Shown here one piece after another: positions 2,202 through 23,503 of a DNA stretch of 64,000 nucleotides. How positions within the stretch are numbered: the stretch's first letter is position 1; every line of letters starts with the position of its first letter. The stretch lies in assembly GCF_057098645.1 (NCBI RefSeq), contig NZ_CM169472.1; one strand, 5' to 3'. Under the pieces are notes generated by a model, which made no database searches, was not told where the DNA came from, and saw only the letters and a list, made by a program, of their open reading frames with translations. Made by a program: the position numbers and the translations under genes.

Positions 2202-2410
2202 ACCAGAATGATATCGAAGCCATGATTCAGCGTTATACGGAAGCTGAAATGGCGGTGCTGGACGGAAAATCCGTCACCTTTAATGGTCAGCAGATGACCA
2301 TGGAAAACTTATCTGAGATCCGGCAGGGACGGCAGGAGTGGGAGCGCCGCCTTGCGGCTCTGATTACACGACGACGGGGGCATCCTGGGTACCGGCTGGC
2401 GAGGTTCTGA
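2192..2410 (+). CDS. gpW-like head-tail joining protein
   Basis: 72 aa ORF directly after the terminase. Its C-terminus (TRRRGHPGYRLARF) resembles lambda gpW (QRRRGPAGFYV). Start overlaps the terminase end. Confidence 0.6.
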   Translation: MVMNQNDIEAMIQRYTEAEMAVLDGKSVTFNGQQMTMENLSEIRQGRQEWERRLAALITRRRGHPGYRLARF

Positions 2411-3918
2411 TGGCAATTCTTGATGATGTGATTGGCGTTTTTTCACCAGGATGGAAAGCGGCAAGGCTGCGTTCCCGTGCGGTGATCCAGGCTTATGAGG
2501 CCGTAAAAACGACACGGACACACAAAGCCCGGCGGGAAAACCGAACTGCCGACCAGTTAAGCCAGTACGGGGCCGTGTCGTTACGTGAGCAGGCCCGTTA
2601 CCTTGATAACAACCACGATCTGGTTATTGGTGTATTTGACAAGCTGGAAGAACGGGTGGTGGGGAAAAACGGGATTATTGTCGAGCCACATCCGGTATTA
2701 CGCAATGGGGCCATTGCCCGTGATCTGGCAGCGGAGATACGCACCCGATGGAGTGAATGGTCTGTCAGTCCGGAAGTCACCGGGCAGTTTACCCGTCCGA
2801 TGCTGGAACGTCTGATGCTGCGTACCTGGCTGCGCGATGGTGAGGTGTTTGCCCAGATGGTTTCCGGGCGCATAAACAGCCTGACGCCTTCTGCCGGTGT
2901 TCATTTCTGGCTGGAGGCGCTCGAGCCGGACTTTATTCCCATGACCAGTGATGAGAGCAACAGGCTGAATCAGGGCGTGTTTGTTGATGACTGGGGGCGT
3001 CCCGAAAAATATCTGGTGTATAAAAGCCGTCCCGTATCCGGGCGGCAGATGGAAACCAAAGAAGTGGATGCAGAGCGAATGCTGCATCTTAAATTTGTTC
3101 GCCGTCTGCACCAGATGCGCGGGACGTCTTTGTTGTCCGGTGTGCTGATCCGCCTCAGTGCCCTGAAAGAGTATGAAGATTCTGAGCTGACTGCAGCAAG
3201 GATCGCCGCTGCTCTGGGGATGTACATCCGGAAAGGCGACGGGCAGAGCTATGAACCGGATGGTAATGGCAGCAAGGAGAATGAACGCGAGCTTACCATT
3301 CAGCCAGGCATTATTTACGACGATCTGAAACCCGGCGAAGAAATCGGAATGGTGAAGTCGGATCGTCCCAATCCTAACCTTGAAACTTTTCGTAATGGTC
3401 AGTTGCGTGCCGTGGCGGCGGGCAGTCGTCTGAGTTTTTCCAGTACGGCACGCAACTATAACGGCACTTACAGCGCCCAGCGTCAGGAACTGGTTGAGTC
3501 TACTGATGGCTACCTGATCCTGCAGGACTGGTTTATTGGTGCCGTCACCCGCCCGATGTATCGTGCCTGGCTGAAACAGGCTGTGGCATCCGGTGTTATC
3601 AGGTTACCCCGCGATCTTGACCGTTCTTCACTGTATACCGCGGTGTATTCCGGACCAGTGATGCCGTGGATTGACCCTGTTAAGGAGGCTGAGGCCTGGA
3701 AAATCCAGATTCGTGGTGGAGCGGCGACAGAATCAGACTGGGTACGTGCTGGTGGTCGTAATCCGGATGATGTCAAACGTCGGCGCAAGGCCGAAATTGA
3801 TGAAAACCGCAAGCTGGATCTGGTATTTGATACCGATCCGGCCAGTGATAAAGGAGGCAGCAGTGCCGCAACGAAACGACAGGAGCCGCAGCACACCGAC
3901 GACCAGTCCGAAGAATAA
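2410..3918 (+). CDS. Portal protein
   Basis: About 502 aa, starting at ATG 2410, which overlaps the W-like stop (ATGA). Position after terminase and W, and size, fit a lambda-family portal. The ORF-track start at 2338 is probably an upstream extension. Confidence 0.75.
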   Translation: MAILDDVIGVFSPGWKAARLRSRAVIQAYEAVKTTRTHKARRENRTADQLSQYGAVSLREQARYLDNNHDLVIGVFDKLEERVVGKNGIIVEPHPVLRNGAIARDLAAEIRTRWSEWSVSPEVTGQFTRPMLERLMLRTWLRDGEVFAQMVSGRINSLTPSAGVHFWLEALEPDFIPMTSDESNRLNQGVFVDDWGRPEKYLVYKSRPVSGRQMETKEVDAERMLHLKFVRRLHQMRGTSLLSGVLIRLSALKEYEDSELTAARIAAALGMYIRKGDGQSYEPDGNGSKENERELTIQPGIIYDDLKPGEEIGMVKSDRPNPNLETFRNGQLRAVAAGSRLSFSSTARNYNGTYSAQRQELVESTDGYLILQDWFIGAVTRPMYRAWLKQAVASGVIRLPRDLDRSSLYTAVYSGPVMPWIDPVKEAEAWKIQIRGGAATESDWVRAGGRNPDDVKRRRKAEIDENRKLDLVFDTDPASDKGGSSAATKRQEPQHTDDQSEE

Positions 3919-3931
3919 TTCCTGGTTCAGG

Positions 3932-5890
3932 ATGCAGGCTGGTCACCAGAGTGACGCGGATATTTATATTTATGACGAGATTGGTTTCTGGGGTGTTACA
4001 GCGAAGCAGTTTATCAGTGATCTGAATGCACTGGGCGATATCACCCACATTAATCTCCATATTAATTCACCGGGTGGCGATGTCTTTGAAGGCATCGCCA
4101 TTTTTAATGCGCTGAAAACACATGGTGCGTCCATTACCGTTTATGTCGACGGTGTGGCGGCGTCAATGGCGTCGGTCATTGCGATGGTGGGAAACCCGGT
4201 CATTATGCCGGAAAACACCTTCATGATGATTCATAAACCATTTGGCTTTACGGGCGGTGATGCGGAGGACATGCGCACCTATGCCGACCTGCTCGATAAG
4301 GTTGAGGCGGTTCTGTTACCCGCTTATGCACAGAAAACCGGGAAAACCACCGATGAAATTGCTGCCATGCTGGCGGATGAGACCTGGATGTCCGGTGCCG
4401 AATGTCTGGCACATGGATTTGCTGATCAGGTAACGCCAGCCGTTAAGGCAATGGCATGTATTCAGTCAAAACGTACAGAGGAATTTAAAAAGATGCCGGA
4501 ATCCATTCGAAACATGATTACTCCGCCACGCAACAGTGCTCCACGCGTACAGGATGATGAACCTGCAGCCTCCCGGACGCCAGTGCAGGCAGCAGCACCC
4601 GTGGTGGATGAAAACAGTATCCGTGCGCAGGTACTGGCAGAGCAAAAAGCGCGTGTAAACGGTATTAATGATCTGTTTGCCATGTTTGGCGGGCGTTATC
4701 AGACGCTGCAGGCTCAGTGTCTTGCCGATCCTGAATGTTCGCTGGAGCAGGCCCGCGAAAAGCTGTTGAACGAGATGGGGCGCGAGTCCACGCCATCCAA
4801 TAAAAATACCCCGGCTCATATTTATGCCGGTAACGGTAATTTTGTGGGGGACGGGATCCGCCAGGCGCTGATGGCGCGTGCCGGATTTGAAAAAACCGAA
4901 CGTGATAATGTCTACAACGGGATGACCCTGCGTGAATATGCCCGTATGTCACTGACTGAACGGGGTATTGGGGTTTCCAGTTATAACCCGATGCAGATGG
5001 TCGGTGCGGCGTTCACACACAGTACGTCTGACTTCGGTAATATTCTGCTGGATGTTGCGAACAAAGCCATTCTGCAGGGCTGGGAAGATGCCCCTGAAAC
5101 CTATGAACAGTGGACGCGGAAAGGTCAGTTGTCTGATTTTAAAATTGCCCATCGTGTGGGTATGGGGGGCTTCAGTGCTCTGCGTCAGGTGCGTGAAGGG
5201 GCGGAATATAAATACGTCACCACCGGAGATAAACAGGCCACTATTGCACTGGCGACCTATGGCGAGCTGTTCAGTATCACCCGTCAGGCCATTATCAATG
5301 ATGATCTGAATATGCTGACCGATGTCCCGATGAAACTGGGCCGTGCGGCGAAATCCACTATTGCCGATCTGGTTTATGCCATTCTGACGTCTAACCCGAA
5401 AATCTCCACAGATAATGTAAGTCTGTTCGATAAAGCGAAACATGCAAACGTACTGGAGAGCGCTGCAATGGACGTGGCATCGCTGGATAAAGCCCGCCAG
5501 TTGATGCGCGTTCAGAAAGAGGGGGAGCGTCATCTGAATATTCGTCCTGCGTTCGTACTGGTACCGACGGCGATGGAGTCTGTTGCTAACCAGGTCATTC
5601 GCTCCTCAAGTGTCAAGGGGGCTGACATTAACGCCGGTATTATTAACCCGGTGAAAGATTTTGCGACCGTTATTGCAGAGCCTCGTCTTGATGATAACAG
5701 CCAGACCACTTTCTACCTGGCTGCGTCCAAAGGCTCCGATACGATTGAAGTGGCTTATCTCAACGGTGTGGATACGCCATATATTGATCAGATGGAGGGC
5801 TTCAGTGTGGATGGCGTGACAACGAAAGTGCGTATTGACGCCGGTGTCGCGCCAGTTGATCACCGCGGTCTGGTGAAATGTACGGCGTAA
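3932..5890 (+). CDS. Prohead protease (ClpP-like) fused to scaffold-like linker and major capsid protein domain
   Basis: Single uninterrupted frame. The N-terminal ~200 aa look like a ClpP/S14 peptidase (INSPGGDV, MASV.A, MIHKP). A charged Pro/Ala-rich linker follows, then a C-terminal ~330 aa capsid-like domain. Start chosen at the first ATG after the portal stop. Confidence 0.7.
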   Translation: MQAGHQSDADIYIYDEIGFWGVTAKQFISDLNALGDITHINLHINSPGGDVFEGIAIFNALKTHGASITVYVDGVAASMASVIAMVGNPVIMPENTFMMIHKPFGFTGGDAEDMRTYADLLDKVEAVLLPAYAQKTGKTTDEIAAMLADETWMSGAECLAHGFADQVTPAVKAMACIQSKRTEEFKKMPESIRNMITPPRNSAPRVQDDEPAASRTPVQAAAPVVDENSIRAQVLAEQKARVNGINDLFAMFGGRYQTLQAQCLADPECSLEQAREKLLNEMGRESTPSNKNTPAHIYAGNGNFVGDGIRQALMARAGFEKTERDNVYNGMTLREYARMSLTERGIGVSSYNPMQMVGAAFTHSTSDFGNILLDVANKAILQGWEDAPETYEQWTRKGQLSDFKIAHRVGMGGFSALRQVREGAEYKYVTTGDKQATIALATYGELFSITRQAIINDDLNMLTDVPMKLGRAAKSTIADLVYAILTSNPKISTDNVSLFDKAKHANVLESAAMDVASLDKARQLMRVQKEGERHLNIRPAFVLVPTAMESVANQVIRSSSVKGADINAGIINPVKDFATVIAEPRLDDNSQTTFYLAASKGSDTIEVAYLNGVDTPYIDQMEGFSVDGVTTKVRIDAGVAPVDHRGLVKCTA

Positions 5891-5976: not shown

Positions 5977-6300
5977 ATGGCAAAGAATTTTGTAGAAGAA
6001 GGAAAAACGGTGGCGATTGTTGCCAGTGCAGCCATCAGCAGCGGAGATCTGGTGCAGGTGGGCGATGTTTTTGCGGTGGCGCTGACCGATATTCCACAGG
6101 GTGAAACAGGCGACGGCATGACCGAAGGTGTGTTTATGCTGCCTAAGCTGAAAACGGATGACATGAAAACGGGTAAGAAGGTTTATCTGAAGTCCGGAAA
6201 AGTTCAGCTGACTAACAGCGGCTCTGATCCGCTGGTCGGGGTTGTCTGGGCAGATGCCGGAACCAGTGCAGAAGAAGTGCCGGTAAAACTCAATGTCTGA
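5977..6300 (+). CDS. Small phage head protein (DUF2190-like, possible decoration or head-completion protein)
   Basis: 107 aa from ATG 5977, preceded by GGAG. Lies right after the capsid gene. Family assignment is from memory and is weak. Confidence 0.4.
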   Translation: MAKNFVEEGKTVAIVASAAISSGDLVQVGDVFAVALTDIPQGETGDGMTEGVFMLPKLKTDDMKTGKKVYLKSGKVQLTNSGSDPLVGVVWADAGTSAEEVPVKLNV

Positions 6301-8368: not shown

Positions 8369-8758
8369 ATGATGTTTCTGAAACAGGGCACGTTTAATTA
8401 TGAAAAGCAGTCCGTGGTGCTCAGTGAGCTGTCCGGGCTGCAGAGAATTGAATATCTGGCGTTTGTTCAGCAGCGAACGGCAAAGTTTGATGCCGAAGAG
8501 GGAGAACTGCCGGAGGCTGAACGACAGATTGCTTTTCTGCGGATGGGGATGGATATCAATGCCTGGCTGGTTTCCCGCTCACTGTGGAATGCGGAACAGT
8601 CTCAGGATGTTGAGACGCTTTGCGCATCCGTTATTACAACATGGTCGTATGATGCCCTGGGAGCGGGGGCGGAGATGGTTCTGTCGCTGAGCGGTATGGG
8701 AGCCATTGAGAATGCCGGGGATTTGGAGCATGAGGTGCTGACGCCGGAAAAGTCCTGA
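8369..8758 (+). CDS. G: Tail assembly chaperone G
   Basis: Start MMFLKQ parallels lambda G MFLKT, and the LSELSGLQRIEYLA motif matches. The ORF-track TTG start at 8330 lies inside the upstream hairpin and is rejected. Confidence 0.8.
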   Translation: MMFLKQGTFNYEKQSVVLSELSGLQRIEYLAFVQQRTAKFDAEEGELPEAERQIAFLRMGMDINAWLVSRSLWNAEQSQDVETLCASVITTWSYDALGAGAEMVLSLSGMGAIENAGDLEHEVLTPEKS

Positions 8759-9096
8759 CGCGGGAAATGCAGTTTGTCATGCGGCTTGCCCGGGAGTTCC
8801 GGCGGGCAGACTGGCGGCGGATGCTGTCGGAAATGTCGGCCACTGAGCTTGGTGAGTGGGGCGATTATTTCCGGATGCAGAGCTTCAGTGATGTCTGGAT
8901 GGATGCGCAGTTTGCCTCGCTGAAGGCATTGATCGTGAGAATGGTGTCCGGCAGCAGTGATGCTGCGGTGGCTGATTTCAGCCTTTTACCGGAAGAGAAC
9001 GGGATACCGGAGCGAACGGACGAAGAACTGATGCATCTTGGAGAAGGTATTTCCGGAGGTGTGCGTTATGGACCAGATAGCCAACCTGGTCATTGA
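8734..9096 (+). CDS. T: Tail assembly chaperone T segment, expressed as a G-T fusion by -1 frameshift
   Basis: The -1 frame relative to G is open from 8734 and continues to 9096. G ends at 8758, so the shift must occur in 8734-8758. The lambda GGGAAAG site is replaced here by GGAAAAG at 8746-8752. Confidence 0.6.
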   Translation, partial: GADAGKVLTREMQFVMRLAREFRRADWRRMLSEMSATELGEWGDYFRMQSFSDVWMDAQFASLKALIVRMVSGSSDAAVADFSLLPEENGIPERTDEELMHLGEGISGGVRYGPDSQPGH

Positions 9097-12000: not shown

Positions 12001-12133
12001 TAACGATGGCACGAACGGGCAGATAGGTCCGGCTGCCCTGAAGGTGGTTTATGACCTTGGGAAAAAAGCGGCAGCGGACTTTATGCAACAGCAGGCCCGT
12101 GATGGTGGTCGGTTAAGTGGAGCATATCGGTAA
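9068..12133 (+). CDS. H: Tail tape measure protein H
   Basis: About 1021 aa, coiled-coil-rich. The C-terminus (NDGTNGQIGPAALK.VYD) matches lambda gpH. Start chosen at MDQIANLVIDL, by analogy to lambda H MAEPVGDLVVDL. Confidence 0.85.
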   Translation: MDQIANLVIDLGIDAAEFKNEIPRIKNLLNGAASDAERSSARMQRFMERQTQAARQTTQAASSAATAASVHAQTVEKNAQAHERMAREVEKTRQRMEALSQKMRDEQAQAMALAEAQDKAAAAFYRQIDSVKQASAGLQELQRIQQQIRQARNSGGIGQQDYLALISEVTAKTRVLTQAEEEATRQKVAFIRQLKEQATRQNLSSSELLRAKAAQLGVSSAAEVYIRKMEQAGKATHSLGLKSAAARQEIGVLIGELARGNLGALRGSGITLANRAGWIDTLMSPKGMMLGGVIGGIAAAVYGLGKAWYDGQKEGEEFNRQLSLTGHYAGVTAGQLWTLSRAISGNGITQHAAAGALAQVVGSGAFRGNDIGMVARAAAQMERSVGQSVSDTINQFKRLKDDPVNAAKALDNELHFLTATQLEQIRVLGEQGRSSDAARIAMSALAEETGRRTADIDNNLNALGSTLKYLSDLWSRFWDAAMNIGREDSLDEQISALQEKVSQAKRLPWTASSSQVEYDQQRLNELQEKKRQKDLQDAKEQAERNYQEQQKRRNAENAALNRMNETEAARHQREIARINAMQYADQAVRDAAIQRENERYEKALASGKKKTREPRNDEATRLLLQYSQQQAQVEGQIAAARQSAGIATERMTEAHKQLLALQQRISDLDGKKLTADEKSVLARKDELIQALTLLDVKQQELQKQTALNELKKKTIQLTSQLAEEERAQRQQHDLDIATVGMGDQQRQRYQVQLSLRQKYQQQLEQLRRDSEQKGTYNTDDYRKAEQALTESLNRQLNENRRYWQQLEVVQGNWKNGVLRAFQDFTVDADNTAGTAEQVFSSAFSNMGNGLATFVTTGKLNFKSFTSSVLSDMAKILAQATMMKSIKGIGSVLGFDLSSLSLNANGGIYQSADLSRYSGTVVNRPTFFAFAKGAGVMGEAGPEAILPLRRGADGKLGVVADIGGSGMAMFAPQYNIEINNDGTNGQIGPAALKVVYDLGKKAAADFMQQQARDGGRLSGAYR

Positions 12134-12462
12134 TGGAGACGTTTCACTGGAAAGTGCGCCCGGATATGAATGTGGTATCAGAGCCGAAAGTGGTGACAGT
12201 GAAGCTGGGCGATGGTTATGAACAGCGTCGTGCGGCGGGACTGAATAACCAGTTGTCGACTTACAGCGTGACGATACGTGTTCGTAAATGTGAACACCCA
12301 TCTTTAAAAGCCTTTCTGGAACGGCACGGTGGCGTCCGTGCATTTCAGTGGACGCCACCTTATGACTGGAAACCGATTAGGGTGGTTTGTCGTAAATGGT
12401 CGGCAAGCGTGGGGGCGCTGTGGGTAACCATAACGGCAGATTTTGAACAGGTCGTGGCATAG
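12133..12462 (+). CDS. M: Minor tail protein M
   Basis: 109 aa, colinear with lambda gpM (FHWKVRPDMNV, GDGYEQR, TYSV, HGG, WTPPYDWK). Confidence 0.9.
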   Translation: METFHWKVRPDMNVVSEPKVVTVKLGDGYEQRRAAGLNNQLSTYSVTIRVRKCEHPSLKAFLERHGGVRAFQWTPPYDWKPIRVVCRKWSASVGALWVTITADFEQVVA

Positions 12463-12471
12463 GAGGCTCTG

Positions 12472-13170
12472 ATGCAGGATATTCCACAGGAAACACATCA
12501 TGAGACGACACGCCTCACTCAGTCAGCCCAGGTGGTGCTCTGGGAAATCGATCTGACAGAGGTCGGTGGTGAACGTTATTTTTTCTGTAATGAGCAGAAC
12601 GAAAAAGGTGAGCCGGTTACCTGGCAGGGGCGGCAGTATCAGGCATACCCCATTCAGGGGACGGGATTTGAACTGAATGGCAAGGGCAGTGCTGCCCGTC
12701 CGACACTGACGGTTTCTAACCTGCACGGCATGGTCACCGGGATGGCGGAAGACCTGCAGAGTCTGGTCGGCGGAACGGTGGTCAGGCGTAAGGTTTACGC
12801 CCGTTTTCTGGATGCGGTGAACTTCGTCAACGGAAACAGCGACGCCGATCCGGAGCAGGAGGTGATCAGCCGCTGGCGCATCGAGCAGTGCAGCGAACTG
12901 AGTGCGGTCAGTGCCTCCTTTGTGTTGTCCACACCGACGGAAACGGATGGTGCCGTTTTTCCGGGGCGCATCATGCTGGCCAACACCTGCACCTGGACCT
13001 ATCGCAGTGATGAGTGCGGTTATCACGGTCCGGCTGTCGCGGATGAATATGATCAGCCGACGTCCGATATCACGAAGGATAAATGCAGCAAATGCCTGAG
13101 TGGCTGTAAGTTCCGCAATAATGTCGGCAACTTTGGCGGCTTCCTTTCCATTAACAAACTTTCGCAGTAA
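12472..13170 (+). CDS. L: Minor tail protein L
   Basis: 232 aa, nearly identical to lambda gpL as I recall it. Confidence 0.9.
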   Translation: MQDIPQETHHETTRLTQSAQVVLWEIDLTEVGGERYFFCNEQNEKGEPVTWQGRQYQAYPIQGTGFELNGKGSAARPTLTVSNLHGMVTGMAEDLQSLVGGTVVRRKVYARFLDAVNFVNGNSDADPEQEVISRWRIEQCSELSAVSASFVLSTPTETDGAVFPGRIMLANTCTWTYRSDECGYHGPAVADEYDQPTSDITKDKCSKCLSGCKFRNNVGNFGGFLSINKLSQ

Positions 13171-13175
13171 ATCCC

Positions 13176-13919
13176 ATGACAGAGACAGAATCAGCGATTC
13201 TGGCGCACGCCCGGCGATGTGCGCCAGCGGAGTCGTGCGGCTTCGTGGTGAGAACGCCGGAAGGGGAAAGATATTTTCCCTGCGTGAATATCTCCGGTGA
13301 GCCGGAGGATTATTTCCGGATGTCGCCGGAGGACTGGCTGCGGGCAGAGATGCAGGGTGAGATTGTGGCGCTGGTCCACAGCCACCCCGGTGGCCTGCCC
13401 TGGCTGAGTGAGGCTGACCGGCGGCTGCAGGTGCAGAGTGATTTGCCATGGTGGCTGGTCTGCCGGGGGGCGATTCATAAATTCCGCTGTGTGCCGCATC
13501 TTACCGGGCGGCGCTTTGAGCACGGGGTGACGGATTGTTACACGCTGTTCCGGGACGCTTACCATCTGGCGGGGATTGAGATGCCGGATTTTCATCGTGA
13601 GGATGACTGGTGGCGTAACGGCCAGAATCTCTATCTGGATAATCTGGAGGCCACAGGACTGTATCAGGTGCCGTTGTCATCAGCACAACCGGGTGATGTG
13701 CTGCTGTGCTGTTTTGGTTCATCGGTGCCGAATCATGCCGCCATTTACTGTGGTGACGGCGAGCTGCTGCACCATATTCCTGAACAACTGAGCAAACGAG
13801 AGAGGTATACAGACAAATGGCAGCGACGCACACACTCCCTCTGGCGTCACCGGGCATGGCACGCATCTGCCTTTACGGGGATTTACAACGATTTGGCCGC
13901 CGCATCGACCTTCGTGTGA
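13176..13919 (+). CDS. K: Tail tip assembly protein K
   Basis: 247 aa, nearly identical to lambda gpK as I recall it. Confidence 0.9.
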   Translation: MTETESAILAHARRCAPAESCGFVVRTPEGERYFPCVNISGEPEDYFRMSPEDWLRAEMQGEIVALVHSHPGGLPWLSEADRRLQVQSDLPWWLVCRGAIHKFRCVPHLTGRRFEHGVTDCYTLFRDAYHLAGIEMPDFHREDDWWRNGQNLYLDNLEATGLYQVPLSSAQPGDVLLCCFGSSVPNHAAIYCGDGELLHHIPEQLSKRERYTDKWQRRTHSLWRHRAWHASAFTGIYNDLAAASTFV

Positions 13920-14458
13920 AAACGGGGGCTGAAGCCATCCGCGCACTGGCCACACAGCTCCCGGCGTTTCGTCAGAAACTGAGCGACGGCTGGTATCAGG
14001 TACGGATTGCCGGGCGTGATGCAGGCGAAAATGAATTATCAGCCCGTCTTAATGAACCGCTGGCAAATGGTGCTGTGATCCATATCGTGCCGCGTCTGGC
14101 AGGAGCCAAAAGTGGCGGTGTGTTTCAGGCTGTGCTGGGGGCGGCTGTTATGGCGGTTGCTATATGGATGCCGGGGGTAGGAATTATGGCGAGTAATCTG
14201 CTGTTTTCTCTCGGTGCCAGTATGACGCTTGGCGGTGTTGCACAGATGCTGGCCCCTAAACCCAAAACCCCCCGCACACAGACAACGGATAACGGCAAAC
14301 AGAACACCTATTTTTCTTCACTGGATAATATGGTTGCCCAGGGCAATGTCCTGCCCGTTCTGTACGGTGAAATGCGTGTGGGGTCGCGGGTGGTATCTCA
14401 GGAGATCAGCACGGCAGATGAAGGTGATGGTGGTCAGGTTGTGGTGATTGGTCGCTGA
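13817..14458 (+). CDS. I: Tail tip assembly protein I
   Basis: 213 aa. Its N-terminus MAATHTLPLASPGMARICLYGDLQRFGRRIDLRV matches lambda gpI. It overlaps the K 3' end as in lambda. Confidence 0.85.
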   Translation: MAATHTLPLASPGMARICLYGDLQRFGRRIDLRVKTGAEAIRALATQLPAFRQKLSDGWYQVRIAGRDAGENELSARLNEPLANGAVIHIVPRLAGAKSGGVFQAVLGAAVMAVAIWMPGVGIMASNLLFSLGASMTLGGVAQMLAPKPKTPRTQTTDNGKQNTYFSSLDNMVAQGNVLPVLYGEMRVGSRVVSQEISTADEGDGGQVVVIGR

Positions 14459-14518
14459 TGAAAAATGTTTTATGTGAAACCGCCTGCGGGCGGTTTTGTC
14501 GTTTATGGAGCGTGACGA

Positions 14519-17500
14519 ATGGGTAAAGGCAGCAGTAAGGGGCATACCCCGCGCGAAGCGAAGGACAACCTGAAATCCACGCAGTTGCTGAGTGTGATTG
14601 ATGCCATCAGTGAAGGGCCGGTTGAAGGTCCGGTGGATGGATTAAAAAGCGTGCTGCTGAACAGTACGCCGGTGCTGGACAGTGAGGGGAATACCAACAT
14701 CGCCGGTGTCACGGTGGTGTTCCGGGCTGGTGAGCAGGAGCAGACTCCGCCGGAGGGATTTGAATCCTCCGGCTCCGAGACGGTGCTGGGTACGGAAGTG
14801 AAATACGACACGCCGATCACCCGCACCATCACGTCGGCAAACATCGACCGTCTGCGCTTTACCTTCGGTGTACAGGCACTGGTGGAAACCACCTCAAAGG
14901 GTGACAGGAATCCGTCGGAAGTCCGTCTGCTGGTTCAGATACAACGTAACGGTGGCTGGGTGACGGAAAAAGACATCACCATTAAGGGCAAAACCACCTC
15001 GCAGTATCTGGCCTCGGTGGTGGTGGGTAGCCTGCCGCCGCGCCCGTTTAATATCCGGATGCGCAGGATGACGCCGGACAGCACCACAGACCAGCTGCAG
15101 AACAAAACGCTCTGGTCGTCATACACCGAAATCATCGATGTGAAACAGTGCTACCCGAACACGGCACTGGTCGGCGTGCAGGTGGACTCGGAGCAGTTCG
15201 GCAGCCAGCAGGTGAGCCGTAATTATCATCTTCGCGGGCGCATTCTGCAGGTGCCGTCGAACTATAACCCGCAGACGCGGCAATACAGCGGTATCTGGGA
15301 CGGAACGTTAAAGCCAGCATACAGCAACAACATGGCCTGGTGTCTGTGGGATATGCTGACCCACCCGCGCTACGGCATGGGGAAACGTCTTGGTGCGGCG
15401 GATGTGGACAAATGGGCGCTGTATGTCATCGGCCAGTATTGCGACCAGTCGGTGCCGGACGGTTTTGGCGGCACGGAGTCGCGCATCACCTGTAACGCTT
15501 ACCTGACCACACAGCGTAAGGCGTGGGATGTTCTCAGTGATTTCTGCTCGGCGATGCGCTGTATGCCGGTATGGAACGGGCAGACGCTGACGTTCGTGCA
15601 GGACCGACCGTCGGATAAGGTGTGGACCTATAACCGCAGTAATGTGGTGATGCCGGATGATGGCGCGCCGTTCCGCTACAGTTTCAGCGCCCTGAAGGAC
15701 CGCCATAATGCCGTTGAGGTGAACTGGATTGACCCGAATAACGGCTGGGAGACGGCGACAGAGCTTGTGGAGGACACGCAGGCCATTCTCCGTTACGGTC
15801 GTAACGTCACGAAGATGGATGCCTTTGGCTGTACCAGCCGGGGGCAGGCACACCGCGCCGGGCTGTGGCTGATTAAAACGGAGCTGCTGGAAACGCAGAC
15901 TGTGGACTTCAGCGTGGGCGCAGAAGGGCTTCGCCATGTACCGGGCGATGTCATTGAAATCTGCGATGATGACTATGCGGGTATCAGCGTCGGCGGGCGC
16001 GTGCTTGCGGTAAACAGCCAGACCCGGACACTGACGCTCGACCGTGAAATCATGCTGCCATCCTCCGGAACCACGCTGATAAGCCTGGTTGACGGAAATG
16101 GCAATCCGGTCAGCGTGGAGGTCCAGTCCGTCACCGACGGCGTGAAGGTGAAAGTGAGCCGTGTTCCTGACGGCGTTGCCGAATACAGCGTGTGGGGGCT
16201 GAAGCTGCCGACGCTGCGCCAGCGCCTGTTCCGCTGCGTGAGTATCCGTGAGAACGATGACGGCACGTATGCCATCACCGCCGTGCAGCATGTACCGGAG
16301 AAAGAAGCCATCGTGGATAACGGGGCGCACTTTGACGGTGACCAGAGCGGCACGGTGAATGGTGTCACGCCGCCAGCAGTGCAGCACCTGACCGCCGAAG
16401 TCACTGCAGACAGCGGGGAATATCAGGTGCTGGCGCGATGGGACACACCGAAGGTGGTGAAGGGCGTGAGCTTCCTGCTCCGTCTGACCGTAACAGCGGA
16501 TGACGGCAGTGAGCGGCTGGTCAGCACGGCCCGGACGACGGAAACCACTTACCGCTTCACACAACTGGCGCTGGGGAACTACAGGCTGACAGTCCGGGCA
16601 GTAAATGCGTGGGGGCAGCAGGGCGATCCGGCGTCGGTATCGTTCCGGATTGCCGCACCGGCAGCGCCGTCGCGGATTGAGCTGACGCCGGGCTATTTTC
16701 AGATAACCGCCACGCCGCATCTTGCGGTTTATGATCCGACGGTACAGTTTGAGTTCTGGTTCTCGGAAAAGCGGATTGCGGATATCAGGCAGGTTGAAAC
16801 CACAGCACGCTATCTTGGCACGGCGCTGTACTGGATAGCCGCCAGTATCAATATCAAACCGGGCCATGATTATTACTTTTATATCCGCAGTGTGAACACC
16901 GTTGGCAAATCGGCATTCGTGGAGGCTGTTGGTCAGCCGAGTGATGATGCATCCGGTTATCTGGATTTTTTCAAAGGCGAGATAGGGAAAACCCATCTGG
17001 CTCAGGAGCTGTGGACGCAGATTGATAACGGTCAGCTTGCGCCTGACCTGGCTGAAATCAGGACGTCCATTACGGATGTCAGCAATGAAATCACGCAGAC
17101 CGTCAATAAGAAACTGGAAGACCAGAGTGCTGCAATTCAGCAGATACAGAAGGTTCAGGTTGATACAAATAATAACCTGAACAGCATGTGGGCTGTGAAG
17201 CTGCAGCAGATGCAGGACGGACGCCTTTATATCGCGGGTATTGGTGCCGGTATTGAGAATACCCCTGACGGCATGCAGAGTCAGGTGCTGCTGGCGGCGG
17301 ACAGGATTGCGATGGTTAATCCTGCGAATGGCAACACAAAACCGATGTTTGTTGGTCAGGGCGATCAGATATTCATGAACGACGTGTTCCTGAAACGCCT
17401 GACGGCTCCCACCATTACCAGCGGTGGAAATCCGCCGGCATTTTCCCTGACACCAGACGGAAAGCTGACCGCTAAAAATGCGGATATCAGCGGTAATGTG

Positions 17501-18001
17501 AATGCAAATTCAGGGACGCTCAACAATGTCACGATTAATGAAAACTGTCAGATTAAGGGGAAACTGTCAGCCAATCAGATTGAAGGCGATATTGTCAAAA
17601 CGGTCAGCAAGTCTTTCCCCTGCACGAACAGTTATGCCAGTGGCACCATCACGGTAAGAATCAGTGATGATCAGAAATTTGACCGGCAGGTCATGATACC
17701 GCCAGTGTTATTCCGCGGTGGTAAGCATGAGAATTTCAACAGTAATAACCAACAGTCATACTGGTATTCAACCTGCCGGTTAAGAGTGACCCGCAATGGT
17801 CAGGAGATTTTTAAGCAGTCCACGACGGATGCTCAGGGCGTATTTTCCTCAGTTATAGATATGCCTGCCGGACAGGGGACGCTGACACTGACATTCACCG
17901 TATCTTCATCAGGAGCGAATAACTGGACACCAACAACCAGTATCAGCGATCTGCTGGTTGTGGTGATGAAAAAATCCACAGCAGGTATCAGTATCAGCTG
18001 A
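14519..18001 (+). CDS. J: Tip attachment / host specificity protein J
   Basis: 1160 aa in the lambda J position after I, with SD GGAG upstream. Receptor specificity of the C-terminus cannot be assigned from sequence. Confidence 0.9.
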
Positions 18002-18067: not shown

Positions 18068-18667
18068 ATGCGTAAACTTTATGCCGCCATTTTGTCCGCA
18101 GCCATTTGTCTGGCCGTATCCGGTGCGCCTGCATGGGCGTCTGAACATCAGTCCACGCTGAGCGCGGGGTATCTTCATGCCCGGACGAACGTTCCCGGCG
18201 GTGATGATCTGAACGGGATTAACGTGAAATACCGTTATGAGTTTACGGACACACTGGGGATGGTGACGTCGTTCAGCTATGCAGGAGACAAGAATCGCCA
18301 GATTACCCGTTACAGCGATACCCGCTGGCATGAAGATTCCATTCGTAACCGCTGGTTCAGCGTAATGGCGGGGCCGTCTGTGCGCGTGAATGAATGGTTC
18401 AGCGCGTATGCGATGGCGGGTGTGGCTTACAGCCGTGTGTCGACTTTCTCCGGGGATTATCTCCGCGTAACTGACAACAAGGGGAAAAAGCACGATGTGC
18501 TGACCGGAAGTGATGACGGTCGCCACAGCAACACGTCTCTGGCGTGGGGAGCTGGCGTGCAGTTTAACCCGACCGAATCCGTGGCCATTGATGTCGCTTA
18601 TGAAGGCTCCGGCAGTGGTGACTGGCGCACTGACGGTTTCATCGTGGGTGTCGGTTATAAATTCTGA
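18068..18667 (+). CDS. lom: Lom outer-membrane protein (Ail/PagC/Lom family) moron
   Basis: 199 aa with signal peptide. The C-terminus [25 protein letters not shown] matches lambda Lom. Own SD GAGAGG. Confidence 0.85.
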
Positions 18668-18693
18668 TTAGCCAGGTAACACAGTGTTATGAC

Positions 18694-18720
18694 AGCCCGC
18701 CGGTTCAGGCGGGCTTTTTT
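18694..18720 (+). terminator. Rho-independent terminator after lom
   Basis: AGCCCGCC-GGTTCAG-GCGGGCT followed by TTTTTT. Confidence 0.75.
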
Positions 18721-18725
18721 GTGGG

Positions 18726-21700
18726 GTGAATATGGCAGTAAAGATTTCAGGTGTACTGAAAGACGGCACAGGAAAACCGGTACAGAACTGCACAATCCAG
18801 CTGAAAGCAAAACGTAACAGCACCACGGTGGTGGTGAACACGCTGGCCTCAGAAAATCCGGATGAAGCCGGGCGTTACAGCATGGACGTTGAGTACGGGC
18901 AGTACAGCGTTATTCTGTTGGTGGAGGGATTCCCGCCGTCACATGCCGGGACCATCACCGTGTATGAAGATTCCCGACCCGGTACGCTGAATGATTTTCT
19001 CGGTGCCATGACGGAGGATGATGCCCGTCCTGAGGCACTGCGCCGTTTTGAACTGATGGTGGAAGAGGTGGCGCGTAACGCGTCCGCGGTGGCACAGAAC
19101 ACGGCAGCCGCGAAGAAGTCAGCCAGCGATGCCGGCACATCAGCCCGTGAGGCGGCAACCCATGCGACTGATGCTGCAGGCTCAGCACGCGCAGCCAGCA
19201 CGTCAGCCGGACAGGCCGCGTCGTCGGCTCAGTCAGCGTCTTCCAGCGCAGGAACGGCATCAACAAAGGCCAGTGAAGCATCGAAAAGTGCTGCTGCTGC
19301 AGAGTCCTCAAAAAGCGCGGCGGCTACCAGTGCCGGTGCGGCGAAAACGTCAGAAACGAATGCTGCAGCGTCACAAAAATCTGCAGCCACTTCTGCATCC
19401 ACCGCGACCACGAAAGCGTCAGAAGCTGCCACCTCAGCCCGGGATGCAGCGGCCTCAAAAGAGGCAGCGAAATCATCAGAAACGAGCGCAGCCTCGAGCG
19501 CCAGTAATGCCGCTTCCTCGGCAACAGCGGCAGGAAATTCCGCGAAGGCGGCAAAAACGTCCGAGACGAACGCCAGGTCTTCTGAAACGGCAGCGGAACA
19601 GAGCGCCTCAGCTGCGGCAGACTCTGAGACAACAGCTGCATCATCGGCCCGTGAGGCGTCCATTAAGGCAGAGGAGGCAGCAGTCAGTGCCACCGCCGCC
19701 GGAAAATCGGCAGAAAGCGCCGCATCATCCGCTTCAACAGCCACAACGAAGGCTGGCGAAGCCACTGAACAGGCCAGCGCAGCAGCGAGGTCTGCTTCCG
19801 CAGCGAAGACATCCGAAACGAACGCGAAAGCGTCGGAAACCAGCGCAGAATCCTCAAAAACGGCTGCCGCATCGTCCGCCAGTTCGGCGGCGTCATCGGC
19901 ATCATCGGCGTCTGCTTCAAAAGATGAGGCGACCAGACAGGCGTCAGCAGCGAGGGGCAGCGCCACGACGGCATCCACGAAGGCGACAGAGGCTGCTGGC
20001 AGTGCGGCAGCGGCAGCACAGAGCAAAAGTACGGCAGAATCCGCAGCAACGCGCGCCGAGACAGCAGCAAAACGGGCAGAGGATATTGCATCCGCCGTGG
20101 CGCTTGAGGATGCGAGCACGACGAAAAAGGGGATAGTACAGCTCAGCAGTGCGACCAACAGCACTTCCGAGTCACTGGCGGCAACGCCAAAAGCCGTTAA
20201 GGCCGCGTATGACCTGGCTAACGGGAAATACACCGCACAGGATGCAACGACAGCACAGAAAGGGATAATCCAGCTAAGCAGCGCGACCAACAGCACGTCT
20301 GAAACGCTGGCGGCAACGCCAAAGGCAGTAAAAGCAGCCAATGACAATGCTGAGAAACGTCTGCAGAAAGATCAGAACGGTGCGGATATCCCTGGCAAAG
20401 ACACCTTTACGAAAAATATTGGTGCCTGCCGTGCCTTCGGTGGGTCAGTAAGCACAACAACAGGAAACTGGACGACTGCACAGTTTATCGAGTGGCTGGA
20501 TTCTCAGGGAGCATTTAACCATCCATACTGGATGTGCAAGGGTTCCTGGTCTTATGGCAATAATAAAATCATTACTGATACTGGCTGCGGTAATATTCAT
20601 CTCGCCGGAGCTGTCATTGAAGTAATGGGGATAAAGTCAGCGATGACGATCCGCATTACCACACCGACCACCTCCACTGGTGGTGGAACAACTAACGCCC
20701 AGTTTACCTATATTAATCACGGAACAGATTATTCACCTGGCTGGCGAAGGGACTATAACTCCAGAAATAAGCCAACGGCATCAGAGATCGGGGCGTTACC
20801 GTCAGGTGGAACAGCAGTATCATCAGTTAATCTGTCTTCAAAAGGTCGGGTAACCGCGCTGACAGACAATACGCAGGGGGCAACAGGTCTTGAGTTATAC
20901 GAGGTGTATAACAACGGATATCCAACAGCGTATGGAAATATCATTCACCTGAAAGGGATGACAGCCGTTGGCGAAGGTGAGTTACTCATCGGCTGGAGTG
21001 GTACAAGCGGTGCTCATGCTCCGGCATTTATTCGTTCACGACGGGATACGACCGACGCAAACTGGTCGCCGTGGGCGCAGCTTTACACCTCGGCTCATCC
21101 TCCTGCAGAGTTTTATCCAGTCGGTGCACCAATCCCGTGGCCATCAGATACCGTTCCGTCTGGTTATGCCCTGATGCAGGGGCAGACTTTTGACAAATCT
21201 GCTTACCCGAAACTTGCAGCCGCTTATCCGTCAGGCGTGATCCCTGATATGCGTGGCTGGACGATTAAGGGCAAGCCCGCCAGTGATCGAGCCGTATTGT
21301 CTCAGGAACAGGACGGCATTAAATCACACACCCACAGCGCCAGCGTATCCAGTACGGATTTGGGGACGAAAACCACATCGTCGTTTGATTACGGCACTAA
21401 ATCCACGAATAACACTGGTGCGCATACCCATAGTGTTAGCGGTACGGCTGCTTCAGCCGGTGCACATACCCATTCGATGACATTTGTTTCAGGTGGTTCC
21501 AGTGGTGCTCCGGGAAGTGGATCACCTGATTACTCTAAATACAGTGTTAACACTTCTTCTGCAGGCGCTCATACGCACTCTGTATCGGGTACTGCTGCAA
21601 GCGCAGGTGCACACGCACATACTGTCGGTATTGGTGCTCATACGCACTCCGTTGCGATTGGTTCACATGGACATACCATCACCGTTAACGCTGCTGGTAA

Positions 21701-21755
21701 CGCGGAAAACACCGTCAAAAACATCGCATTTAACTATATTGTGAGGCTTGCATAA
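18726..21755 (+). CDS. stf: Side tail fiber protein Stf (mosaic)
   Basis: 1009 aa. N-terminus [26 protein letters not shown] and the His-rich C-terminus ([55 protein letters not shown]) match lambda Stf. The middle carries an Ala/Ser-rich shaft and an extra Cys-containing domain. Confidence 0.85.
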
Positions 21756-22336
21756 TGGCATTCAGAATGAGTGAACAACCACGGACCATAAAAATTTATA
21801 ATCTGCTGGCCGGAACTAATGAATTTATTGGTGAAGGTGACGCATATATTCCGCCTCATACAGGTCTGCCTGTAAACAGTACCTATATTGCACCGCCAGA
21901 TATTCCGGCTGGTTTCGTGGCTGTTTTCAACAGTGATGAGTCATCGTGGCATCTCGTTGAAGATCATCGGGGTAAAACGGTTTATGACGTGGCTTCCGGC
22001 GACGCGTTATTTATTTCTGAACTCGGTCCGTTACCGGAAAATGTTACCTGGTTATCGCCGGAAGGGGAGTTTCAGAAGTGGAACGGCACAGCCTGGTTGA
22101 AGGATACGGAAGCAGAAAAACTGTTCCGGATCCGGGAGGCGGAAGAAACAAAAAACAACCTGATGCAGGTAGCCAGTGAGCATATTGCGCCGCTTCAGGA
22201 TGCTGCAGATCTGGAAATTGCAACGGAGGAAGAAATCTCGTTGCTGGAAGCATGGAAAAAGTATCGGGTATTGCTGAACCGTGTTGATACATCAACTGCA
22301 CCTGATATTGAGTGGCCAGCAGCACCTGTAGGATAA
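21755..22336 (+). CDS. tfa: Tail fiber assembly protein Tfa
   Basis: 193 aa, near-identical to lambda Tfa as I recall it ([39 protein letters not shown]). Confidence 0.9.
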
Positions 22337-22436
22337 AACAAAAACTTTATATAGAGTGCTCTTTTTACAATGTCAGATAAATGCTGGCCGAAATGTAATT
22401 CATTAGAAGTAAAAAACAGAATGGTTTGAGGGTGTG

Positions 22437-22480
22437 TCATCCCTTTATTATTAATAGTGAAAGGGATGACATTCTTTTTT
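22437..22480 (+). terminator. Rho-independent terminator downstream of tfa
   Basis: 11-bp stem GTCATCCCTTT / AAAGGGATGAC with a 12-nt loop, followed by ATTCTTTTTT. Confidence 0.7.
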
Positions 22481-22676
22481 AAGGAGTGTCTTTTTTATCG
22501 GAATATAAGTTGAGATAATGTTTAACTCGATTATAAAAATGTTTTTTCTTATCTCTTGGAATGCTTACTATTATATGCATTATGGGGCTTGTGTTTGCCG
22601 ATAATTTAGCTGATGCATACATTGAAGCAAGGAATTCAATATCAGTATTGTCAAAATTAAAACTTTCTCCATCCAT
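22479..22676 (-). CDS. Hypothetical 65-aa protein (orphan moron ORF)
   Basis: ORF in low-GC DNA with a plausible SD (AAGGA 8 nt before the ATG on the minus strand). No recognisable motif. Confidence 0.35.
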   Translation of the reverse strand: MDGESFNFDNTDIEFLASMYASAKLSANTSPIMHIIVSIPRDKKKHFYNRVKHYLNLYSDKKDTP

Positions 22677-22982
22677 TTCAATTCCTTATGTGTTTGGCTC
22701 GGTATACTGTATCCCATGAGATTTTACGTAAATTGTCATATCTAATATTGCAATTATAATTGTAGCTAATTATTTTAAATTAGGTGAAAGTTTATTGCGA
22801 ATGATTAACTCGGAAAAAAAGATTTCTCACGGTTAGTAAGTATATTAGGTCAGTATTCAGATATGAGTAGTGTTAACGACTAAATTTGCAATCACATATA
22901 GATTTTTGTTCTAATAAAGATGTTTTATTTGGCGATTCGTCAAGCATCTCCACTTAAGCAATCGTATATATTAAGAGTGCAA

Positions 22983-23078
22983 AAGAGAAGGGACAACGTT
23001 GCTCGCACTCTGGAATAAATATCGGGTATTGTTAAAGTGTGGTGATACATAATTGTACGGGATATTGAGTGGCCTGAA
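22983..23078 (+). pseudogene. Decayed second copy of the tfa 3' end
   Basis: CTGGAATAAATATCGGGTATTG...GATACAT...GATATTGAGTGGCC aligns to the tfa 3' end at about 22240-22330 (CTGGAAGCATGGAAAAAGTATCGGGTATTG...GATACATCA...GATATTGAGTGGCC), but with an in-frame stop and an indel. Confidence 0.5.
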
Positions 23079-23213
23079 GTCCCAGTCATTGAGTAATCTT
23101 TTCGTGATATGCCGCAGAAACGTTGTATGCAGGAACGTGCTGCGGCTAACTGGTGAACTTTCGATAGTGCGGGTATTGAATGATTTCCAGCCGTTACCGA
23201 TTTTACGTGCTAA

Positions 23214-23462
23214 TTAGTGAACAAACCACTCGTCAGCAGACTCCCAGGTATCTTTCAGAGTTTCCTGAACAAAAGTTTTAGCTGAATCTTTATCGGCAGT
23301 GCGCGTAACAGAAAGGCCATCGTTGCTGGTGGTTTTTACGATCACCTCTACATCGTCATAACGCTTACTGATGCGTCGAGTTAATTCTTCCTTTAACGCA
23401 TCCACAGCACCGTTTGGCATTTTAGTCATTTTCTCTTTGGCTATGCAGATCTCAATACGCAT
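23214..23462 (-). CDS. DinI-like SOS protein
   Basis: 82 aa. The N-terminal MRIE..IAK and C-terminal [16 protein letters not shown] match E. coli DinI (MRIEVTIAK ... ILQETWESADDWFV). SD GAGGG upstream on the minus strand. Confidence 0.85.
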
Positions 23463-23475
23463 AAAAATCCCTCTA

Positions 23476-23495
23476 CACTGTGTTTGTATACAGTA
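23476..23495. promoter_or_regulatory. LexA box 1 (SOS operator) upstream of the dinI-like gene
   Basis: CACTGTGTTTGTATACAGTA, which fits CTG-N10-CAG and the consensus TACTGTATATATATACAGTA. Lies 16 bp upstream of the dinI-like start. Confidence 0.7.
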
Positions 23496-23503
23496 TTATT
23501 TTT

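Follow-up and report, generated by a model that had tools for sequence, protein, structure and literature searches.

An intact Gifsy-2-type tripartite capsid gene in a lambdoid prophage adjoining prfC in the Escherichia coli chromosome

The plus-strand gene at positions 3863-5890 of the window (by which we mean the whole 64,000-nt stretch of contig NZ_CM169472.1, assembly GCF_057098645.1, that was analysed) is very probably an ordinary, intact Gifsy-2-type 'tripartite capsid gene' of the NF045540 family, carried by a lambdoid prophage that adjoins prfC, a judgement that we make jointly with the processing mechanism proposed in the Discussion. A ClpP-like prohead protease, a scaffold-like region and a major capsid protein are encoded in it as one product. 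Given the Gifsy-2 precedent, the existence of the NF045540 model and the fusions reported from actinophages, this architecture has been known before, the window gene being an unexceptional example. [quoted passage not shown]

Results

Family membership

Read from the ATG at 3932, the frame runs to the stop codon at 5888-5890 through 652 codons (3932-5890, plus strand, as are all features given below), and its translation holds zero internal stops, in keeping with an earlier sequence-only reading that had described one uninterrupted frame with no stop or frameshift between the domains. Residue numbers refer to the 675-aa protein that is set out in the next section unless the 652-aa numbering is stated. 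The domain search which that reading had proposed returned both a ClpP-type protease and a capsid: in Pfam, CLP_protease matched residues 23-168 (E 8.8e-36) and Phage_capsid_4 residues 352-649 (E 7.4e-55; both in 652-aa numbering), the latter together with a weak Mu-like gpT match, and PHROG 133, 'head maturation protease', aligned end to end (1-652 of the 652-aa form). The NCBIfam model NF045540 (scaf_prot_MCP1) gave 985.2 bits, twice its curated cut-off of 475 bits, with query residues 9-651/652 on model positions 2-651/652, and RefSeq names the product 'ClpP-like prohead protease/major capsid protein fusion protein'.

Alongside this full-length HMM match, the protein carries a ClpP-fold protease with catalytic Ser and His and a C-terminal HK97-fold capsid domain, its three parts lie in one frame, a portal gene lies 5' and a cement/decoration gene 3', and we found no sequence feature that contradicts NF045540 membership. 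That protease, scaffold-like region and major capsid form a single polypeptide had been proposed from the letters alone; NF045540 and the Gifsy-2 fusion protein, which is 69.6% identical over 668 aa and has the same three-part single ORF, both agree. The cut-off of NF045541 (scaf_prot_MCP2) was not reached (400 vs 525 bits), and only residues 197-649 (652-aa numbering) align with that model. Nor does the gene correspond to an HK97 gp4/gp5 module, which has a separate S78 protease, since CLP_protease and capsid share one ORF here; a Pfam search gave the protease domain no Peptidase_S78 match.

Translation start

The gene had been begun at ATG 3932 (652 aa) in the sequence-only reading, a start that probably lies 69 nt downstream of the real one. 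The true start is almost certainly GTG 3863, yielding a fusion CDS at 3863-5890 (stop 5888-5890) of 675 aa and 73.5 kDa, identified from RefSeq, NF045540 and PHROG 133. Upstream of ATG 3932 the reading frame is open as far as 3671 according to the ORF list. A consensus Shine-Dalgarno sequence, AAAGGAGG, read directly from the DNA at 3850-3857 within the 3' end of the portal gene, stands 5 nt 5' of the GTG, and the anti-SD duplex with the 16S rRNA 3' end comes to -11.6 kcal/mol at GTG 3863, the strongest among the in-frame start candidates of the fusion ORF, against -2.7 at ATG 3932. RefSeq gives the 675-aa form, with these very coordinates, for copies that are identical or nearly so, and homologues of 75-94% identity all start at the codon equivalent to GTG 3863. 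In addition, 'KNNSWFRM' upstream of the Met at ATG 3932 is kept in homologues, and there is no Met there in the Gifsy-2 protein, whose similarity to the window already begins upstream, at 3914.

The longer form includes a 23-aa N-terminal extension, MPQRNDRSRSTPTTSPKNNSWFR (3863-3931), which is basic and predicted to be disordered (pLDDT <50 for residues 1-16). The overlap of the fusion gene (3863-3918) with the final 56 nt of the portal gene, in a different frame, suggests that the two genes are translationally coupled.

It is unlikely that the gene also yields, besides the full-length protein, a 50.7-kDa protease-less scaffold-plus-capsid product from the ATG at 4493 (Met211) in the manner of Nu3 in C, the shorter form being the main shell subunit and the full-length form a minority protease carrier. 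This ATG falls precisely where the protease domain ends, lambda offers a precedent in the scaffold Nu3, nested by coordinates in C, and an in-frame ATG with a GAGGA-type motif at 9-10 nt spacing occurs at the corresponding place in the window, in Gifsy-2 and in Pseudomonas phage MD8 (duplex energies of -6.0, -8.8 and -6.9 kcal/mol, respectively). However, the spacing is long, the duplex falls far short of the -11.6 kcal/mol at the true start, and the SD-like motif is simply what Glu-Glu/Gln-Glu codons spell. Across our conservation set of 88 diverse family members (33-69% identity to the query), column statistics give A19, V18, I14, P13 for Met211, which is not conserved family-wide, while the adjacent Pro212 is near-invariant (81/88), so that conservation here acts at the level of the protein and not of a start codon. 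The column of a second internal candidate, Met176, reads M28/L22/F18/Y18 across the family. A Nu3-like internal start at Met211 or Met176, promising in three genomes, was thus rejected as a family feature, as neither Met is conserved (n=88). For the enterobacterial and Pseudomonas subgroup there is likewise a small chance that ATG 4493 may be a Nu3-like start setting the protease:capsid ratio through two nested products.

Protease domain

The ClpP-fold (MEROPS S14-type) serine protease domain of this fusion occupies 3932-4447 (aa 24-195). Within it lie the oxyanion 'GG' (residues 71-72), the catalytic Ser101 (4163-4165, in 'AASMAS'), the catalytic His124 (4232-4234, in 'MIHKP') and, as the probable third catalytic residue, Glu173 (4379-4381), which aligns with the ClpP catalytic Asp; position 173 is E or D in 84 of the 88 sequences. 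Judged by profile scores, the domain has the ClpP fold yet is no cellular ClpP orthologue, since it misses the cut-offs of the cellular ClpP equivalog models by far, scoring for instance only 59.7 bits on TIGR00493, whose cut-off is 308.6.

That low score, and a Glu where the third triad residue is canonically Asp, could be taken to mean that the ClpP-like domain has no catalytic activity and serves as a structural or scaffold module, the precursor being left uncleaved or cut by a host protease. We hold this to be very improbable: within the N-terminal half, Gly71, Gly72, Ser101 and His124 alone are unchanged in all 88 sequences, a pattern that marks an active enzyme, and the domain passed NF045542, a model dedicated to the 'head maturation protease, ClpP-related', with 216 bits against a cut-off of 120. 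Since only catalytic and oxyanion residues are invariant there, the protease domain is under selection as a working serine protease, which supports self-processing of the precursor.

Middle region, junction and coat

In the fusion protein, the region between the protease and capsid domains (aa 196-345) consists of a disordered hinge and a three-helix domain. It opens with a moderately conserved post-protease segment, AMACIQSKRTEEFKKMPESIRNMITPP (4448-4528, aa 196-222), which has two short helices (203-207 and 213-219); the in-frame ATG at 4493 (Met211) falls within this segment. The hypervariable, disordered Pro/Ala-rich hinge follows at 4529-4612 (aa 223-250; 36% P+A, 29% charged, pLDDT <50 for residues 224-246) and lies in the two middle-region blocks with the greatest length variation across the family, 22-60 and 9-49 residues. 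Seven alleles from E. coli, Shigella and other enterobacteria were compared: six have hinges only 39-46% identical to that of the window, and upstream, in the protease domain and post-protease segment, the same six reach 81-100% identity. In one allele, P0088, identity is 99-100% for residues 1-222 but only 43% for the hinge, with 65-71% for the distal capsid domain. On such comparisons, the fusion gene itself is mosaic between alleles.

Next to the hinge, at 4613-4798 (aa 251-312), comes a moderately conserved three-helix domain, its helices (250-273, 280-288 and 294-308) predicted at pLDDT 90-97, which is presumed to be an internal scaffold analogous to a delta-domain or Nu3. The charged Pro/Ala-rich linker of the sequence-only reading therefore survives for residues 223-250 and gives way to this well-predicted domain over residues 251-312. 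In phage vB_EcoM-473R2, a homologous ClpP-type protease and the middle region form a separate 354-aa protein, after which come separate decoration and lambda-E-type capsid genes. Conversely, the 697-aa ORF of Ralstonia phage YO122_2 (NF045541) has the middle-plus-capsid module in common with the window, fused to an N-terminal domain that is not ClpP-like and shows a faint Peptidase_S78 hint only (E 0.18). The middle region thus behaves as a module able to travel with either protease or capsid, which fits a scaffold role. A different protease was also suspected in relatives that align in two stretches (P0124, P0128, P0129, P0141, P0161 and P0184); all proved to be ClpP-type MCP1 members with divergent hinges.

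The junction (4799-4897, aa 313-345) comprises the end of a low-confidence loop at ~310-326 (pLDDT 56-76 for residues 310-330) and then the first helix of the capsid part; Pro311, just upstream, is conserved in 78/88. Maturation cleavage would most likely fall in this zone, at about residues 310-345, with the loop at ~310-326 the most plausible place on the predicted structure, and after a cut there the coat protein would have a computed mass of 36-40 kDa. The HK97-fold major capsid protein domain takes up the rest of the gene (4898-5887, aa 346-675). In the PDB we found no entry matching the family beyond the protease domain, the capsid domain having at most marginal similarity.

Genomic setting

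Directly 5' of the fusion lies the portal gene (2410-3918, 502 aa; PHROG 21 portal, 6.5e-139; RefSeq 'phage portal protein'), whose product shares 64% identity with the portal of Gifsy-2 and 21% with lambda B. Directly 3' is a gene for a head decoration or cement protein of 107 aa (5977-6300; PHROG 122 'head decoration', 1.8e-47; Pfam Phage_cement_2, 1e-20), 60% identical to its Gifsy-2 orthologue. This protein was tried as a homologue of lambda gpD and rejected, as BLASTP gave no similarity (E 0.95) and the match is to Phage_cement_2 instead.

Gifsy-2 (NC_010393; fusion STM1034.3n; Effantin et al. 2010, Virology 402:355, pmid 20427067) is annotated with TerL, a small W-like ORF, portal, a 696-aa 'Clp protease involved in capsid processing', a 107-aa ORF and a lambda-like tail. 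The window has the same gene order of TerL, W-like adaptor, portal (overlapping the fusion start), fusion, 107-aa cement protein and tail, with proteins 42-77% identical throughout, and the portal-fusion-cement order recurs in Gifsy-2, MD8 and CP-1639. Differences from the Gifsy-2 fusion are allelic only, namely the sequence of the hinge and a shorter N-terminal extension in the window (675 vs an annotated 696 aa).

When lambda proteins were searched against the window by tblastn, C, Nu3 and D had no match and E one at chance level only (E 1.1). Terminase and portal are distantly related (A 25%, B 21%), whereas the tail is more similar, at 50-56% for Z, U, V and M, 32% for G and 25% for H, and the tail tip far more so (L 93%, K 97%, I 81%, J 83%); against Gifsy-2, these tip genes L-J reach 65-77%. 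Identity to lambda jumps most sharply within the tail, where it rises from 56% in M to 81-97% in L, K, I and J, and the sharpest recent exchange is the one between M and L, at ~12460-12470. At the end of gene G the canonical lambda G/T slippery site GGGAAAG is absent. The sequence-only reading had seen a head/tail mosaic; relative to lambda this is apt, a non-lambda head shell being joined to a homologous tail, but Gifsy-2 has the same combination of head and tail shaft collinearly, which makes it an established module not peculiar to the window phage.

The first gene of the window is that for the large terminase subunit; the closest genome has its small-subunit terminase gene truncated by an IS3 element. 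The prophage adjoins prfC in the E. coli chromosome. From 27500 to 64000 the window consists of E. coli core chromosome, from yjjU to thrABC, which matches the O145:NM strain FWSEC0002 at 99.98% identity.

Occurrence in other genomes

A match to the gene was found in 2124 of 5426 complete E. coli genomes (39%), with an uninterrupted frame at a coverage of at least 80% in 1971 of the complete genomes. Phage records numbered 28 by nucleotide match and 80, with the full-length architecture, by protein match; 16 had at least 98.6% nucleotide identity, including mEp460, cdtI, Ayreon, HannyBb and Tritos. Among plaque-forming or isolated phages, the Tritos protein is 100% identical, and mEp460, cdtI, Ayreon and HannyBb are at least 99% identical in nucleotides. 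Stx2-converting phages and CP-1639 stand at ~77% nucleotide identity, and the fusion of Pseudomonas phage MD8 at 57% amino acid identity. More than 100 clusters at 50% identity align end to end with the fusion protein, and in Gifsy-2, CP-1639 (compared through its annotation only) and MD8 the fusion is a single annotated CDS. The belief that similar fusions occur in other enterobacterial prophages is amply borne out by these E. coli genomes, phage records and clusters.

There is a negligible chance that the protease and capsid genes are in truth separate and were joined by a mistake in sequencing or assembly that took out a stop codon or frameshift: although single-base indels do occur hereabouts in some public assemblies, giving 1159-aa portal-protease-capsid products, the intact frame recurs in 1971 E. 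coli genomes, in phage records (28 by nucleotide and 80 by protein match) and in over 100 clusters, a breadth that by sequence comparison excludes such an artefact. With the fusion taken as genuine, a read-level indel would make the window copy a pseudogene and leave the family real. About 12 public 1159-aa portal+Clp+capsid products also prompted us to consider a programmed portal-protease frameshift. This was rejected because the switch point differs in P0007, P0009, P0010 and P0015, so that the 1159-aa products are independent 1-nt indels or errors.

Discussion

Taking family precedent together with the biology of HK97 and lambda, we propose how the product of this gene would be used. On the portal, the precursor would co-assemble to form a T=7 procapsid in which its protease and helical parts face inward and the helical domain serves as a built-in scaffold. 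Confinement would then switch on the protease domains, which would cut the precursor around residues 310-345 and degrade the N-terminal ~35 kDa, leaving a mature coat protein of about 36-40 kDa. DNA packaging would be accompanied by expansion of the shell, which trimers of the cement protein encoded downstream would then stabilise. For the window copy, we infer by analogy the position of cleavage, whether it acts in cis or trans, the scaffold role, the T number and the binding of cement protein.

Several of these steps have counterparts in published accounts of Gifsy-2. [quoted passage not shown] Protease-scaffold-capsid fusions are described in PMC7302621 as common in small-genome actinophages, in clusters EE, AN, CW and others, and the likeness to the window gene is one of description.

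The lambda head is organised differently, with C (an S49 protease), the nested Nu3 scaffold, the D decoration protein and the E capsid protein, so that three or four genes stand where the window has one plus a cement gene. Moreover, the decoration gene precedes the capsid gene in lambda, whereas here it follows the capsid coding region. Like HK97 gp5, the window protein has a helical assembly domain N-terminal to an HK97-fold capsid domain on one polypeptide, and in HK97 this assembly domain is removed inside the procapsid by a phage-encoded protease (PMC10275583). In HK97, however, that protease is the separate gp4 of type S78, while here it is ClpP-type (S14) and on the same chain as the capsid. 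The presence of a cement gene also suggests that the shell is presumably stabilised by decoration and not by covalent chainmail as in HK97.

Many GenBank phage records call the gene only 'protease', 'Nu3', 'protease/scaffold' or 'head-tail preconnector'. Such labels, together with some starts placed at the downstream ATG, mean that automated capsid-gene finders can miss the coat protein; in the results reported in PMC8814770, an automated capsid-identification pipeline gave no HK97-fold MCP for Gifsy-2. This architecture ranks with the commonest head types of E. coli prophages, and a strict 1:1 fusion would mean that each coat subunit of such a head comes with a protease domain of its own.

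Results and discussion

Several GenBank phage records (cdtI, mEp460 and Tritos) annotate the start of the fusion gene at the ATG equivalent to window position 3932, giving a product of 652 aa. We favour the 675-aa product, as supported by the RefSeq annotation, a strong Shine-Dalgarno sequence with a GTG at 3863 and the N-termini of homologues; its coding sequence shares 56 nt with the portal gene (window 3850-3932 region).

Within the fusion gene, the hinge (window 4529-4612, aa 223-250) is hypervariable: between alleles from E. coli and Shigella that are otherwise nearly identical (98-100% in the flanking segments), its identity falls to 43-46%. Some alleles of this family (P0074 and P0088) are 95-100% identical in the protease half and only 64-71% identical in the C-terminal capsid half. 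Because alleles of this type keep the protease half but diverge in the capsid half, recombination breakpoints must lie within the fusion gene. The middle region is bracketed by two near-invariant prolines, Pro212 (window 4496-4498; 81 of 88 family members) and Pro311 (window 4793-4795; 78 of 88), in stretches that are otherwise poorly conserved, and it is possible that these residues are landmarks of domain boundaries or processing sites.

Searches of the PDB with window 3932-5887 and with a protein alignment (A1) found no solved structure matching the fusion family outside the protease domain. For the capsid domain, the best match by sequence was marginal (E 2e-4 over ~53 residues) and was to a 'Mu GpT domain-containing protein' (8rkc/8rkx). 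An atomic structure appears to be lacking for the fusion capsid, which is among the commonest capsid types in E. coli prophages.

Downstream, identity to lambda along the tail genes (window 12130-18001) jumps sharply, from 56% in M to 93% in L, 97% in K, 81% in I and 83% in J, whereas compared with Gifsy-2 the genes of this interval are just 61-77% identical. The jump from M to L therefore implies that the tail-tip genes were recently exchanged with a lambda-like phage, the breakpoint lying near 12460-12470. Of the tail chaperone genes, G ends at 8758 and T, in the -1 frame, has an ATG at 8767. The lambda slippery heptamer GGGAAAG is not present at these genes (8744-8767), where the sequence ahead of the G stop reads CCGGAAAAG, so a G-T frameshift, if any, would need another slip site.

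J is followed by a Lom-like gene (18068-18667), a tail fibre gene encoding 1009 aa (18726-21755), a gene for fibre assembly (21755-22336) and, on the minus strand, a DinI-like gene (23214-23462), beyond which lies host prfC (window 18068-23500 region). In the closest complete genome, that of E. coli O145:NM strain FWSEC0002, the TerL-to-yjjU interval is ~1.3 kb longer than in the window, a recombinase gene adjoins the one for fibre assembly, and the gene for the small terminase subunit is truncated by an IS3 element. The corresponding terminase gene of the window prophage lies upstream of position 1, outside the window.

Around a dozen portal+ClpP+capsid 'triple fusions' of 1159 aa (some 1135 aa), relatives of window 2410-5890, occur in independent public assemblies (proteins P0006-P0017, P0043 and P0044). 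The position of the portal-to-protease frame switch differs in every one of the four inspected. They look like independent 1-nt indels, either errors or decaying prophages, and not like products of a programmed frameshift.

The same parts are also found rearranged in other phages. In Ralstonia phage YO122_2 (locus L010, 2329-4422), a homologous middle+capsid module sits behind a non-ClpP N-terminal domain with a faint S78 hint, and the ORF belongs to the sister fusion family NF045541. Phage vB_EcoM-473R2 (locus L009, 2956-5477) has a split, lambda-like layout, in which a ClpP-type protease plus middle region, the decoration protein and the E-type capsid protein are each encoded by a gene of their own. 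Both layouts are natural rearrangements of these parts.
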